The position numbers were made by a program, and so were the translations under genes. A stretch of 64,000 nt of DNA. Source: a virus (lineage: Duplodnaviria > Caudoviricetes). The first letter of the stretch is position 1, and each line of letters begins with the position of its first letter. The notes beneath the pieces are model-generated. The model had not been told where the DNA came from. It saw nothing but the letters and a program-made list of their open reading frames with translations, and made no database searches. The stretch is taken from positions 32,001 to 96,000 of the IMG/VR virus record IMGVR_UViG_3300037721_000031. One strand, given 5' to 3'. Of the stretch, positions 16,176 to 21,056 are shown one piece after another.

Positions 16176-16181
16176 CGAATA

Positions 16182-16224
16182 GACATAAACAGACAGTTTC
16201 ATAGCGAAACTGTCTGTTTATGTC
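16182..16224. terminator. GGCATAA-family palindrome
   Basis: 19-bp stem gacataaacagacagtttc-atagc-gaaactgtctgtttatgtc. Confidence 0.8.
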
Positions 16225-17029
16225 GTCATTTAGACAAAGTTTTATTAATAAGATATATGCTTATAGTTTAAAAAATACATCAATACTAATGATTTGAACC
16301 ACCGTAAGAGGAGAATAGGGCGGGGGTTTGGGGGTGGGTTAAGAGGAGTTTCCTCTTATTATAGGGCGGGCGTAGCGACGACCTCTAATAGAGTAGTGGT
16401 GTTATACTTTTCTTACAGCCATAAACCATTCCACTATCCCAGGGTCAACAGGCCCTGGGGAATAGGTAATGATGGTTTTAATTAAAACATATATAAACGC
16501 GCGCGAGCGTGCGCATGTGTGATGTTATATAGTGAATAAATGAAATGATTTAAAAGAGTTATGAGCTATTTGTTTTAATAAGAGTATGAACTCTACCATA
16601 CATTGAAACAAATCTAACATGGATAAGTTTGAAAGGTTTTAGAGACATTATTAGTAGATATTTTAGAGAGCTATAACTAGAATATTCTTTACTACAGTAA
16701 CAACCAATACTCCTACTCTAAAAAAAGAAATTTTAAAACAATTCTTATTTTACTTTTTACACTACGTGTAGTAATATGAGTATGTCAATTTAATAAGATG
16801 TAAGTTAATCTAAAAATAAGAAAAAAGTATACAGTCTTAAATCTTAGTGATGATTATGATAATTTAAAAGATATACAAAGTGATCTATAAACGTTTACAT
16901 TCTTTATAGCGGGAATACTACTATCTAATGAAATTAAACGTTTGTAGATGATTCTGAAAAGATTTAGAACTATGTTCGACGTCTATTAGATTTGTATAGA
17001 TTATTTTTTACGATAAAAGGAATCTGGAA
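16225..17029. other. Long non-coding locus with a G-quadruplex motif, hairpins, a Z-DNA-prone tract and an AT-rich stretch (candidate origin or packaging site)
   Basis: GGG C GGGGG TTT GGGGG T GGG at 16318-16338; hairpin taagagga-gtt-tcctctta; cccaggg/ccctggg stem; acgcgcgcg-a-gcgtgcgcatgtgtg at 16497-16521; line 16801-16860 has 12 G+C in 60 nt. Confidence 0.45.
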
Positions 17030-18274
17030 ATGAGTAGCATGATAAAAGAAATATTTGATAAACTAGTTGGAGCTTCGTTACCAATTGATTCTTATATGGT
17101 AAAACAAGTACACCGTTATCAAACTGATTTTGTTAACAAAAATAAAGATCACACCGAGTTCTTTGGTGGGAACTTGACAGGTGTACACATTACCAGGTTT
17201 ACAGACTCTGATAAGTCTAAGTGGTTTGAAGATGTATTAGATAATGCAGACTCTGAGGAACTTAGAGAGAAGTTACATACAGTCCCAGCATTGCAGAATG
17301 AAAAAGGTGTGTTTATCATATCTGGTGATGTAATGAATTTATCCTGCATGTGGCTGTTACATAAGTTTCACAATGCTTCAAACATTCCTTTAGATCATAG
17401 ACGAAATGCGATGATCGATGTAATGTTAGCAATGCAATTCAAGATGTTGACATCGTTATTATTTCACTACTTTAGATATCCTGCTGATAGAGCTGTAGCC
17501 GAGGCTACTTATGCAATGCTTACAAATAAGTACTCATTGAAGGTATATGGGTCTTGGATCGGAGTATTGCGTTCTAGGTGTGAAGATGTAATATCAAATA
17601 CATCTATCCACTTTGACACTATTAGTAAAATGGATAACGATGTTGGTGTTGTTAGAGCTATTAATGATATTCAAGGTAGACTACGTGATATGTTGAAAAA
17701 CATTTACGGTGTATTCTTGCAGGCTCACCACTCAGGTGCTAAAGTAAGCGCTACTTCGTCTGTGATTGAACACGATGGAGTGGAGATACTTAAAGATACT
17801 AGTAAATCACAAACCACTTATATTCGATATATTAAATCCATAATTGGAGATAGTAACTCATTTATACGTGAAGAATTACTGAGAGTAGTGGCTAACATCA
17901 TGCCATCGGCACCACCTAAGCATCTGAGAACAACTCTTGAATTTTTATCAAGAAATTACTTGAAAGCTCAATCTGATGAGGTAATTAAATTACTTGATAA
18001 TACTCTTATCCATAGCTTCACATATCTGGCTGAGAATCGTGCAACAATGCGTTCAGGTATTGACTTACCGTCATTACTAACACGTCTTAGAGGTGTATAC
18101 ACCTCTTCACGTTCTACTGATCCTGATCTGTTAGAGTTAAGAAAGATAGTAGAAGATATTACAAGAACTGCGATTGATGTAAAGACTGAAGCAGTAATAG
18201 CTTCCGTACGTACCGCAGTGTTATTGTACATCATAGCCAGAACATACACTATGCGACATTATCTAACTAATTAA
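17030..18274 (+). CDS. Conserved virion structural protein, phiKZ gp32-like
   Basis: 414 aa with FFGGNLTGVH..RFT and LTSLLFHYFRYP motifs; position next to the terminase. Confidence 0.65.
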   Translation: MSSMIKEIFDKLVGASLPIDSYMVKQVHRYQTDFVNKNKDHTEFFGGNLTGVHITRFTDSDKSKWFEDVLDNADSEELREKLHTVPALQNEKGVFIISGDVMNLSCMWLLHKFHNASNIPLDHRRNAMIDVMLAMQFKMLTSLLFHYFRYPADRAVAEATYAMLTNKYSLKVYGSWIGVLRSRCEDVISNTSIHFDTISKMDNDVGVVRAINDIQGRLRDMLKNIYGVFLQAHHSGAKVSATSSVIEHDGVEILKDTSKSQTTYIRYIKSIIGDSNSFIREELLRVVANIMPSAPPKHLRTTLEFLSRNYLKAQSDEVIKLLDNTLIHSFTYLAENRATMRSGIDLPSLLTRLRGVYTSSRSTDPDLLELRKIVEDITRTAIDVKTEAVIASVRTAVLLYIIARTYTMRHYLTN

Positions 18275-18842: not shown

Positions 18843-21056
18843 ATGACTATCCTATTTGCATCGGACTGGGGTAAATACCCAGGTGCAATCATAGATTTAA
18901 AAACCCGCAACACTTCTTTTATTCGCATGGCGAGTGTACTGCGTTCAATGGGTGTTAAGAATCATGCTTTTCCTCTTGCACTGCATGATAAAACATTACA
19001 AGGTGTAGATCCTTTTGATATTACGAGACTCACTCTTGAACAGCAGTTACGTATTGCGTTAGAATGTAAAAATAATTATTGGTATTATTTTCGAGAGATA
19101 GCAAAAACTTCATCTATCGGTAGTACTGATTCTAAACCATTTCAATGCAATCGTGGTAACATTGCTTTAGCGTGGTTATTCTTTAACCACATTATGCAAA
19201 TTCTTATCCAGCCACGTCAGACTGGTAAGTCTTTCGGTACTGACACAATAATGACTTTGTTATTAAACGTCGTTTGTGTAAATACAAAAATAAATCTATT
19301 AACGAAAGATGATACGTTGAGGCGTTCTAATATACAACGCTTGAAAGATATTGCTAATGAATTACCAATTTATCTACAGCAAAAAGGTCCGACTGACTTA
19401 AACAATACTGAGGAAATTACAATTAATTCATTAGGTAATAGATATACAACACACGTTCCTCAGATGTCAGTTAAGAAAGCTATTGGTTTAGGTCGAGGTC
19501 TGACAACACCAATATTCCACATTGATGAAGCTCCATTTCAGTCAAATATAGAAATTGCTTTACCAGCAGCACTAGCCGCTATGGGTGCCGCTGTGGATAA
19601 GGCTGCCGATGAAGATGCTCCTTATGGTACTATTATTACAACTACAGCTGGTAAGAAGGATGATAAAGACGGTCGTTTTATTTATAACATGATGTCTGAA
19701 TCAGCTAATTGGACAGAACGTTTTTTAGACGCTGTTGATCATTCTGATTTAGAAAATATGATACGTCGTAATAGTCGTACTGGTAAGTTAAGAGTGTCGT
19801 GTGTTTTTAATCATCGACAACTAGGCAAGACAGATGACTGGTTACGTCGTAAGTTAGAAGAAGCTGTGCAATCAGGAGACGATGCTAACCGAGACTTCTT
19901 TAACATGTGGACTTCTGGCTCACAGACTAATCCATTACCTACAAGTGTCTTGGAAACAATCCGTGCTAGTGCTAAAGAAGTGAAGTATGTAGATATCTCG
20001 CCAATAAACGGTTATGTCACTAACTGGTACATTAATGAAGATGAGATAGAAGCTAGAATGGCGAATGGTCAATTCGTTCTAGGTATGGATACATCCGAAG
20101 CTTCTGGTGGCGATGATATTTCGCTTATTCTAGTAGATGTACGTACATTAGATTTAGTTGCATCAGGTACTTACAATGAAACTAATCTACTCATGTTTTC
20201 TAAGTGGGTAGCTCAGTGGTTTGTTAGGTTTCGTAACTTTACAGCTATTATTGAAAGACGATCTACTGGCGGTATGCTTCTTGATTATCTTCTCATTATG
20301 TTACCGGAAATGGGAATTGACCCATTTGTGAGACTGTTTAACATGATTGTTCATGAGAAAGATGAACAGCCTGAGCGTTACGCTGAAATTTGTCAACCAA
20401 TGAGTAGACGTGATTCTAATATTTACGTCAAGATGAAGAAGGCTTTTGGTTACGCCACCAGTGGATCTGGAGTAACTTCTCGCACAGCCCTGTATTCAGC
20501 AACATTGAAATTAGCCGCTACTCGTGCTGCATCTAAAATATATGATAAAAGTCTTATTGATCAAATAACAGGCTTAATTGTAAAGAATGGTAGAATCGAC
20601 CACGAAGATGGGGCACATGACGACATGGTCATTGGTTGGCTACTATGTATGTGGTTAATTACTTCTGGCGTTAATTTATCACATTACGGTATAGATACAT
20701 CTAAGTTAATGAGTAGAATTGTTGAGATTGAACATTTAGACCCTCATGAGATTTTTGAGAGACGGCAACAAGCTGATCTGAGAAAGAAGCTAGATGATCT
20801 TAGTGATCAATTAGCTAAAACTGCTGATGATTACGTGTCGATGAAAATTGAACATCAAATGCGATCATTAATGCACGGTATCACAGTAGAAGAAGATGAA
20901 ATTCTTTCTGTTGACGAAATGATAAGAATTAGTCGAGAGCGTCGAAAGACTAACAGACTTGATAAGTATTCATCGAGTAATGGACAGAATAATCATTGGT
21001 CTAAGTATCAACAACATACTCCGCAGTCTAGCGGGTATTTTGTAAGAGGTGTATAA
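18843..21056 (+). CDS. terL: Terminase large subunit (phiKZ gp25-like)
   Basis: Walker A QPRQTGKS, Walker B FHIDE, RNase H-like nuclease VLGMDTSE, and HDDMVIGW. Confidence 0.92.
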   Translation: MTILFASDWGKYPGAIIDLKTRNTSFIRMASVLRSMGVKNHAFPLALHDKTLQGVDPFDITRLTLEQQLRIALECKNNYWYYFREIAKTSSIGSTDSKPFQCNRGNIALAWLFFNHIMQILIQPRQTGKSFGTDTIMTLLLNVVCVNTKINLLTKDDTLRRSNIQRLKDIANELPIYLQQKGPTDLNNTEEITINSLGNRYTTHVPQMSVKKAIGLGRGLTTPIFHIDEAPFQSNIEIALPAALAAMGAAVDKAADEDAPYGTIITTTAGKKDDKDGRFIYNMMSESANWTERFLDAVDHSDLENMIRRNSRTGKLRVSCVFNHRQLGKTDDWLRRKLEEAVQSGDDANRDFFNMWTSGSQTNPLPTSVLETIRASAKEVKYVDISPINGYVTNWYINEDEIEARMANGQFVLGMDTSEASGGDDISLILVDVRTLDLVASGTYNETNLLMFSKWVAQWFVRFRNFTAIIERRSTGGMLLDYLLIMLPEMGIDPFVRLFNMIVHEKDEQPERYAEICQPMSRRDSNIYVKMKKAFGYATSGSGVTSRTALYSATLKLAATRAASKIYDKSLIDQITGLIVKNGRIDHEDGAHDDMVIGWLLCMWLITSGVNLSHYGIDTSKLMSRIVEIEHLDPHEIFERRQQADLRKKLDDLSDQLAKTADDYVSMKIEHQMRSLMHGITVEEDEILSVDEMIRISRERRKTNRLDKYSSSNGQNNHWSKYQQHTPQSSGYFVRGV

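Follow-up and report, generated by a model that had tools for sequence, protein, structure and literature searches.

T4, ColE1, and mitochondria offer examples of R-loop origins, in which a promoter is combined with an unwinding element (PMC4412123). Purine-rich RNA gives the most stable RNA:DNA hybrids, and triplexes stabilized by R-loops ("H-loops") have been documented (PMC11667243). For the chimalliviruses, a 2026 preprint describes the lack of an identifiable primase and the presence of an RNase H (Rhc) in the polymerase complex and raises the possibility that replication initiates from RNA:DNA hybrids (PMC13648698). In the literature that we searched, we found no mapped replication origin for a phiKZ-like, nucleus-forming phage. 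Here we describe a locus that may be such a site. It lies in what we call the window, that is, the whole 64,000-nucleotide (nt) stretch of DNA that was analyzed (bases 32001 to 96000 of a 266,566-bp uncultivated virus record that is ~98% complete); judged from its gene content, the window phage is a phiKZ-like, nucleus-forming jumbo phage. The locus is contained in a gap of 854 nt (positions 16176 to 17029) that is free of open reading frames (ORFs) and is the largest of the window, as a first-pass annotation of this DNA had noted, and the fourth largest of the genome. We refer to the structured part of the gap, together with its AT-rich flank, as the module. Comparison with relatives indicates that it is a conserved, noncoding, cis-acting DNA element, and we tentatively favor, as its most likely function, that of a replication start site: a structure-based origin, probably activated by transcription or by an R-loop. 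Below, G000 is the complete genome of the window phage, G001 is that of a distant relative, and L numbers denote contigs of relatives or of other phages.

The most unusual part of the module is a block of G runs, GGGCGGGGGTTTGGGGGTGGG, at positions 16318 to 16338 of the plus strand, exactly where the first-pass annotation had placed it. This canonical G-quadruplex (G4) motif occurs once on the two strands of the 266,566-bp genome, compared with 0.13 occurrences expected in first-order Markov genomes. Similarly, a G5-N1-4-G5 block occurs once (0.05 expected) and CGCGCGCG occurs twice (0.25 expected). The G runs sit inside a purine-rich mirror repeat, or H-motif, that spans positions 16308 to 16348 of the same strand and consists of a 5' arm (GAGGAGAATAGGGCGGGGGT), a central T, and a 3' arm (TGGGGGTGGGTTAAGAGGAG). 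Mirror matches are found at 18 of its 20 arm positions, a score that none of 200 shuffles reached, and the G-run block is the top-scoring mirror repeat of the whole genome. The direct repeats that had been reported here, TAAGAGGAG (two copies, at 16305 and 16340) and ATAGGGCGGG(G/C)GT (two copies, at 16315 and 16361), do occur at those sites but are better read as the arms of this 20-nt mirror repeat.

We compared the gap with the corresponding region of its relatives, defined as uncultivated contigs whose gp32 homologs are 57 to 87% identical to that of the window phage, which is encoded just downstream of the gap (gp32 being the phiKZ protein). Among 50,697 phage records, blastn found nothing that matched the gap. 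The mirror symmetry is kept in L009, L014, L015, L016, and L047, and in five sequences the observed score was never reached by shuffles. In the window clade, the arms are 20 to 23 nt long around a 1- to 3-nt center and have a purine fraction of 0.79 to 0.90; the 5' arm is all purine in L009, L016, and L047 and is broken by one T and one C in the window. The arms covary in six relatives, with a mirror identity of 0.83 between the arms of one sequence versus 0.49 to 0.55 between arms taken from different sequences. Among the arm mismatches, 15 of 22 pair an A in the 5' arm with a T in the 3' arm. The G-G, A-A, and T-A correspondences between the arms coincide exactly with the CG*G, TA*A, and TA*T triads of H-r DNA, the purine-motif intramolecular triplex, and the T-bearing 3' arm fits H-r3, the prevalent H-r isoform (PMC11667243). 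By these rules, the block is built like an H-r triplex motif, with one G/A arm and one G/A/T arm, and the comparison suggests that the mirror symmetry itself is under selection.

The G4 interpretation of the block fared less well. The motif is present and unique in the genome, as described above, but the four-run G4 is not conserved: all of the relatives keep only a G4-7 N1-7 G4-7 core, and L016/L020 and L047 have just two G5 runs together with distant GG or GGG runs separated by loops of >7. The hairpin TAAGAGGAG-TTT-CCTCTTA (16340 to 16358, plus strand), which overlaps the 3' arm of the mirror repeat, is confined to the window phage, and several relatives have in its place a TTAC-GTA-GTAA hairpin with a bulged A. 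The TAAGAGGAG/TCCTCTTA arrangement, that is, the hairpin/G4 switch proposed from the pairing of TCCTCTTA with either copy of TAAGAGGA, is likewise confined to the window phage and is not a conserved feature.

In 8 distinct relatives, the gap is bordered by the same genes. In the closer ones (63 to 87%; L008 to L018, L047, and L049), the gene order is kept wherever the contig extends far enough upstream and runs from the large subunit of ribonucleotide reductase through two or three small leftward genes and a rightward gene of ~200 amino acids (aa) to a gap of 415 to 1,060 nt, the gp32 homolog, a small gene, and terL. The exceptions are L016 and L018, which have two or three small genes before terL, and L049, in which a terL-sized ORF is on the opposite strand; in L051 (58%), the upstream gene is different and the gap is nearly absent. 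No ORF in the gap is conserved in strand, frame, or length among the relatives, and a 63-aa ORF at positions 16294 to 16485 was rejected as coding on that basis. What is kept is a series of parts in a fixed order, namely, a terminator hairpin with TTATG(C/T)(C/T)GT, a segment of ~55 nt, a pyrimidine run with the purine G-run block, a second hairpin, a hairpin with a CAAC(N)A loop, an AT spacer, the alternating tract, and GTTATATAGT.

The CAAC hairpin (16438 to 16459, plus strand) has a stem of 7 to 9 bp and lies within an extended imperfect hairpin at ~16417 to 16477. In the window, it is built on CCCAGGG/CCCTGGG with outer ACCAT/ATGGT pairs, which is the nested stem recognized at first reading. 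The stem sequences found in the clade (CCCAGGG, CACAGGG, CCGGGGC, CTGGAGGCC, CTGGGGGC, CTGCAGACC, and CACTTCAG) differ, with pairing maintained: both sides change at 5 of 9 pairs, 91% of the cells are paired, and none of 500 shuffles equaled this result. The first-pass annotation had named conservation of its stems as a point to check, and for this hairpin, complementarity proved to be kept in relatives despite sequence change. A covariance model of 143 positions, covering the CAAC hairpin and the half with the CG tract, has a single match in the whole genome.

The alternating purine-pyrimidine (CG/CA/TG) tract, ACGCGCGCGAGCGTGCGCATGTGTG, is likewise present as annotated (16497 to 16521, plus strand; 25 nt, with one break in the alternation), between an AT spacer, TTTTAATTAAAACATATATAAA, and a conserved GTTATATAGTG, the three together covering positions 16474 to 16534. 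Alternating tracts that differ in sequence were found in L008, L009, L014, L015, L016, L020, L047, L021, L022, L034, L050, and G001, and of the close relatives whose contigs cover this region, only L012 lacks one. Even L016 and L020, which have identical gp32 homologs, differ in the sequence of the tract. It is predicted to be Z-prone and appears to be kept as a type (alternating and CG-rich), not as a sequence. Beyond the tract comes the flank, ~495 nt on the plus strand (16535 to 17029) with 24% G+C, versus 39% for the window and 46% for the left 250 nt of the gap, in agreement with the ~500 nt of very AT-rich DNA noted earlier. We regard this flank as a candidate unwinding region that may also serve as the promoter or leader of the downstream late operon. 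Three supercoil-driven non-B potentials (triplex/G4, hairpin/cruciform, and Z-DNA) lie within 230 bp next to this flank, and since each appears to be selected on structure rather than on sequence, we read the whole as a cis-acting DNA element. The first-pass proposal of a noncoding locus that works in cis through non-B DNA gains support from conservation, in that mirror symmetry, hairpin complementarity, and the alternating tract are all kept while the sequence drifts.

Two further genomes suggest that the module is autonomous and independent of gene context. The entire module of L014, with the 55-nt upstream segment and an AT-rich flank, has the reverse orientation with respect to the same flanking genes. 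(An invertase-type switch was considered and rejected; no inverted repeats flank the L014 module, and the source run shows one orientation.) G001, a distant relative of 218 kb with terminal repeats, encodes a gp32 homolog that is 45% identical, and there is no gap upstream of that gene. Its only G5-N-G5 blocks lie ~100 kb away, in a lineage-specific region, within a 660-nt ORF-free gap (L053:1368-2026, corresponding to G001:C1 ~134,224-134,883, minus strand) that is not syntenic with the window gap. A CGCGCGCACACGCCCGCGCGTG tract and a giant mirror repeat share this gap, in which the order of the parts is permuted relative to the window. The G001 mirror repeat has 82-nt arms, one of G/A/T and the other of pure G/A, whose mismatches are solely T versus A and whose core is identical at 25 of 26 positions; it is flanked by mirrored pyrimidine tracts, and the same gap contains a CG/CA tract and an inverted pair of TTTAGAGCAAT.

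Relatives at ~56% identity present a different picture. L021:2030-2400, L022:2075-2300, and L050:2560-2900 have a long CG/CA tract and a C-rich mirror block in the gap (for example, CCCTCCCCC-AAAG-CCCCCTCCC), and in L021 and L050, a plus-strand phiKZ-type terminator stands between the tract and the C-rich block, a layout unlike that of the window clade. The C-rich block is at most a possible homolog of the module.

G-rich purine mirror blocks with the same asymmetry also occur in unrelated small phages. A degenerate scan of IMG/VR followed by mirror scoring gave a small sample, ranked by score, of unrelated 20- to 60-kb contigs. In L145 (700-910), the block lies inside a DnaD-like replication-initiator gene, after ~6 AAGGGGCT iterons and a pyrimidine tract, and in the L116 family (L116:8250-8400), it lies inside an O-like initiator gene and is followed by ACGTGAC-type repeats. 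In L087 (430-560), it is beside a DnaB-like helicase gene and is followed by three GTGACTGTCGC iterons. In the L121 family (L121:8195-8250), it lies between cro and a helicase-primase pair, and the cultured Klebsiella phage ST16-OXA48phi5.3 (a prophage) has a shorter version of the block between cro and the helicase-primase genes. The loci of the block in small phages include L180:2265-2290. Despite the small sample, initiator genes and iterons make a very specific neighborhood as far as these contigs go, and the neighbors of the mirror block in other phages point to replication initiation. The exact G-run pattern itself was found in three unrelated GC-rich contigs of IMG/VR. Some IMG/VR matches at contig ends (L101 and L111) were set aside, as they look like poly(G) artifacts.

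The biology of the phage group is compatible with such a role. Searches for the DnaG zinc ribbon, Prim-Pol, and Toprim_2 families gave no match anywhere in the genome, and a 511-aa ORF outside the window contains an RNase H domain (G000:C1:105676-106023), consistent with the RNase H-clamp protein Rhc. We favor the origin reading because of the rarity of the block, its conserved position, the apparent selection on mirror symmetry, the covariation of the hairpin, the independence of gene context, the contexts of the block in small phages, the biology of the family, and the precedent of R-loop origins. Three functions had been offered by the first-pass annotation (a replication origin, a packaging-initiation site, and a genome anchor for the nucleus shell or spindle), and the first is the best supported of them, given the association of the block with initiator and helicase genes and iterons in unrelated phages and the lack of an identified primase in chimalliviruses; none of the observations speaks to the third.

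How such an origin might fire can be sketched from its parts. The terminator of the upstream 205-aa gene, T1 (16182 to 16228, plus strand), is a perfect 19-bp inverted repeat followed by TTTATGTCGTC. It is of the hairpin plus TTATKYYGT type described for phiKZ (PMC10914365), it is kept after the upstream gene in all of the relatives, and it holds a TATG, which is the late-promoter core (PMC7598289). This core stands just after T1 on the G-rich strand and is our candidate start for a purine-rich transcript that would arise from negative supercoiling of, or transcription through, the module. The transcript would form a very stable RNA:DNA hybrid on the pyrimidine template, and the displaced purine strand would fold into a triplex or G4 (an H-loop) and hold the region open. 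The Z-prone tract and the hairpins would take up supercoils, and the AT-rich flank would melt. Finally, the hybrid could be trimmed by the phage RNase H to yield a primer, and the exposed single strand could serve as an entry site for the helicase. The steps from transcript to hybrid to primer are purely our inference. A broader proposal, which is conceivable but which we regard as doubtful, is that the module represents a new class of origin that works without an initiator protein or a primase; here, the mirror repeat, the Z-prone tract, and the hairpins would turn transcription supercoiling into a locked-open R-loop that primes the RNase H-containing chimallivirus replisome, and iteron origins in many small phages, which are often GC-rich, would use the same H-motif for unwinding.

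A number of observations weigh against a replication start site. No promoter has been identified for the module: a search for an early-promoter consensus from k-mers and T runs returned only the terminator motif and a coding YMTP repeat, and a sigma-70 promoter scan of the gap was uninformative, such phages using their own RNA polymerases. An AT-rich flank is present in L008, L009, and L014, whereas the GC-richer relatives L015, L016, L018, and L047 lack one. The genomes of phiKZ, FLC9, and RP31 are without any G5-N-G5 block, so the module is not universal in the family. Clustered iterons with a cognate initiator gene, the marks of an iteron-type origin, were not found at the jumbo-phage module; the sole signal is the presence in the AT-rich flank of three copies of TTTAGAG (16638, 16662, and, on the minus strand, 16716) versus 0.19 expected (P ~0.001, for a motif chosen post hoc). 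H-motifs are best known as polymerase blocks and not as start sites (PMC11667243). The small phages examined are few and were selected on their mirror scores, and in one family of them the block precedes terS-terL (L096:5780-5840 and L137:2310-2370).

Nucleotide skew gives conflicting signals and speaks neither for nor against an origin. The orientation-corrected GC skew at third codon positions (GC3 skew) is significantly nonrandom in both complete genomes, but the module lies in a broad minimum in G000 (36 to 63 kb) and at a maximum in G001 (128 to 146 kb). The signs are thus opposite, the basins are 20 to 27 kb wide, and at fourfold sites, the G000 minimum shifts 10 kb away. The switch pairs, with one significant V in each genome, fall at ~47 and 156 kb in G000 and at ~22 and 132 kb in G001. 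The two genomes share a syntenic minimum, near the gp32/terL/sheath region, but not a syntenic maximum. AT skew places the G001 module at a minimum, where the corrected GC skew is maximal, a position more suggestive of a terminus. The CG tract that lies at the skew minimum of G001 proved to be coding.

Among the alternatives, one that we judge plausible but unlikely holds that the GC-rich half encodes a structured noncoding RNA, made from the TATG after T1 as a separate late transcript or as a 5' leader, with the purine block, the hairpins, and a CG hairpin as its domains. On the G-rich strand of the GC-richer relatives L015, L016/L020, and L047, the CG tract is followed by a second phiKZ-type terminator, which bounds a unit of 320 to 390 nt; this terminator is absent from the window phage, L009, L008, and L014. 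The covariation of the CAAC hairpin, with its loop kept, fits RNA as well as it fits single-stranded DNA, the bulged A of the second hairpin is kept, and folding of the plus strand gives a z-score of -3.2. In G001, the pyrimidine tract, read by eye, can pair with the purine arm only via many G-U pairs, which would suit RNA, and phiKZ itself makes many short RNAs from 5' untranslated regions (PMC10914365). However, an Rfam covariance-model scan of the gap found no family (the best E value was 0.42, and all matches were far below the gathering scores), and a tRNA/tmRNA scan found none. Furthermore, mirror symmetry with an A/T asymmetry has no rationale in RNA folding, and the CG tract keeps its alternation but neither its sequence nor a consistent hairpin. 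The inversion of the L014 module relative to flanking transcription, the permuted order of the parts in G001, and the position of the block inside protein-coding initiator genes in other phages all speak against an RNA.

It is improbable, in our view, that the module is a packaging-initiation (pac) site or a structure recognized and cut by the terminase, the second function offered by the first-pass annotation. The gap is, as that annotation had said, ~2 kb upstream of terL (18843 to 21056), and in the small-phage family mentioned above, the block precedes terS-terL by 116 nt in L096 and terS by ~1.5 kb in L137/L084; H-motifs are also breakage prone (PMC11667243). In the distant relative, however, the module is ~100 kb from the gp32 homolog, the neighbor of terL in the window clade, in a lineage-specific region. 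Its orientation flips between close relatives, whereas packaging is directional, and most of the small-phage cases adjoin replication genes and iterons. Two contigs, of 14 and 104 kb, end inside the homologous gap (L008:1 and L017:1), which could be an assembly break or a hint of a physical end. Such ends would favor a pac site, but assemblies commonly break off artifactually at G-rich or AT-rich DNA, and the probable source sequencing run spans the gap of the window phage in a single contig and in one orientation only.

Equally improbable is a programmed polar barrier or boundary (a block to replication forks or to transcription, a replication terminus, a sink for supercoils between transcription domains, or a hotspot of recombination), which would draw on the best-documented activity of H-r motifs, the orientation-dependent stalling of DNA and RNA polymerases (PMC11667243), on the terminus-like skew position of the G001 module, and on a switch in gene orientation ~700 nt from the module in the window genome, but which is at odds with the skew minimum in G000 and leaves both the association with iterons and initiator genes in other phages and the adjacent AT-rich flank unexplained.

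The remaining features of the gap and its surroundings are as follows. Upstream of the purine block, alignments delimit the conserved segment of ~55 nt at positions 16245 to 16300 of the plus strand. This segment includes GATATATG and a quasi-palindromic A/T-run motif, GTTTAAAAAATAC (16266 to 16278, plus strand), which has the form GTAA-W4-TTAC in relatives and is palindromic in L047, L012, and L016; it could be a promoter or a protein-binding site. Within the AT-rich flank there is a conserved box, TAGTAATATGAGTATGTCAATTTA, at 16769 to 16792. The motif TTATG(C/T)(C/T)GT, which corresponds to the phiKZ-type terminator plus the late-promoter motif, is the most overrepresented intergenic word of G000, with 39 copies (for example, at window positions 731, 10342, 16218, 21090, and 36646), often followed by a run of T8-10, which shows that the transcription signals of the window phage resemble those of phiKZ. 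The top genome-wide k-mers are accounted for by a ~17-nt motif encoding (K)YMTP, a coding repeat typical of a fiber protein, of which 12 copies lie inside a large plus-strand gene outside the window (G000:C1:110366-115835).

The genes that adjoin the gap are context and lie outside the module. Downstream are the gene for the gp32 homolog (17030 to 18274, plus strand; PHROG 2921, annotated as a structural head protein), whose product is 33% identical to phiKZ gp32, a 136-aa gene, and then terL; in relatives, genes for the tail tube and for a sheath of the phiKZ gp29 type follow further downstream. The 205-aa protein encoded upstream of the gap gave no family match and no usable Atlas match, and no initiator-like family was found among the proteins flanking the gap. 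Among cultured phages, Burkholderia phage FLC9 and Ralstonia phages RP12 and RP31 are the closest relatives, with ~50% amino acid identity.

If the module is indeed a replication start site, a single-copy conserved element of ~250 bp with triplex, G4, Z-DNA, and hairpin potential beside an unwinding region would provide a concrete site for the idea of initiation from RNA:DNA hybrids (PMC13648698). The recurrence of the asymmetric purine mirror block beside iterons and initiator genes in unrelated phages suggests a positive, selected role at origins for H-DNA motifs, which are mostly known as obstacles to replication. Such visible selection on mirror symmetry itself would also be rare for a microbial genome.

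Among known systems, the closest in structure are H-r H-DNA and H-loops, with which the module shares a purine/pyrimidine mirror repeat, arm mismatches of A versus T, and, in the window clade, a T-bearing 3' arm (PMC11667243). The arms of the module are, however, short (20 to 23 nt, and 82 nt in G001) and not strictly homopurine in the window phage, and their structure is predicted here, whereas the known cases of H-DNA are eukaryotic repeats studied as obstacles or fragile sites and not conserved phage elements. A combination of elements similar to that of the module is found near the DHFR ori-beta of Chinese hamster ovary cells, where a Z-prone tract lies beside a triplex-prone purine tract, near a replication initiation zone. 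This "Z-triplex" motif is a eukaryotic simple-repeat cluster reported to arrest forks. The term is also used in PMC11667243 and PMC5027492. The hamster motif has no hairpin module, and there is no evidence of its homology to the phage module. The retroviral polypurine tract, an RNase H-resistant primer, is an A-rich purine run that ends in a G run, and the 5' arm of L009 and L047 (GAAGAAAAGGGGG) has the same makeup; this is a resemblance only, no reverse transcription being involved in the phage.

In its overall layout, the module resembles the R-loop origins (T4 oriF and oriG, ColE1 RNA II, the T7 primary origin, and mitochondrial OriH/CSBII), with a G- or purine-rich segment, whose transcript would give a persistent hybrid, followed by an AT-rich region that would melt easily, and as in these systems, an RNase H is at hand, here encoded by the phage (PMC4412123, PMC6317783, PMC8373140, and PMC13648698). 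None of these origins has anything that corresponds to the mirror repeat, the Z-prone tract, or the CAAC hairpin. Its G5-TTT-G5 core resembles mitochondrial CSBII. A second layout for comparison is that of ori-lambda, an origin within gene O that consists of iterons and an unwinding region with purine strand asymmetry. The small phages come close to it: the block sits midway along an initiator-like gene, beside iterons, in L145 and L116 and adjoins iterons and DnaB in L087. The jumbo-phage module differs from lambda-type origins in that it is without an initiator gene or clear iterons, having the weak TTTAGAG enrichment only, and the small phages differ from them in carrying a G-rich H-motif in place of the AT-rich element.

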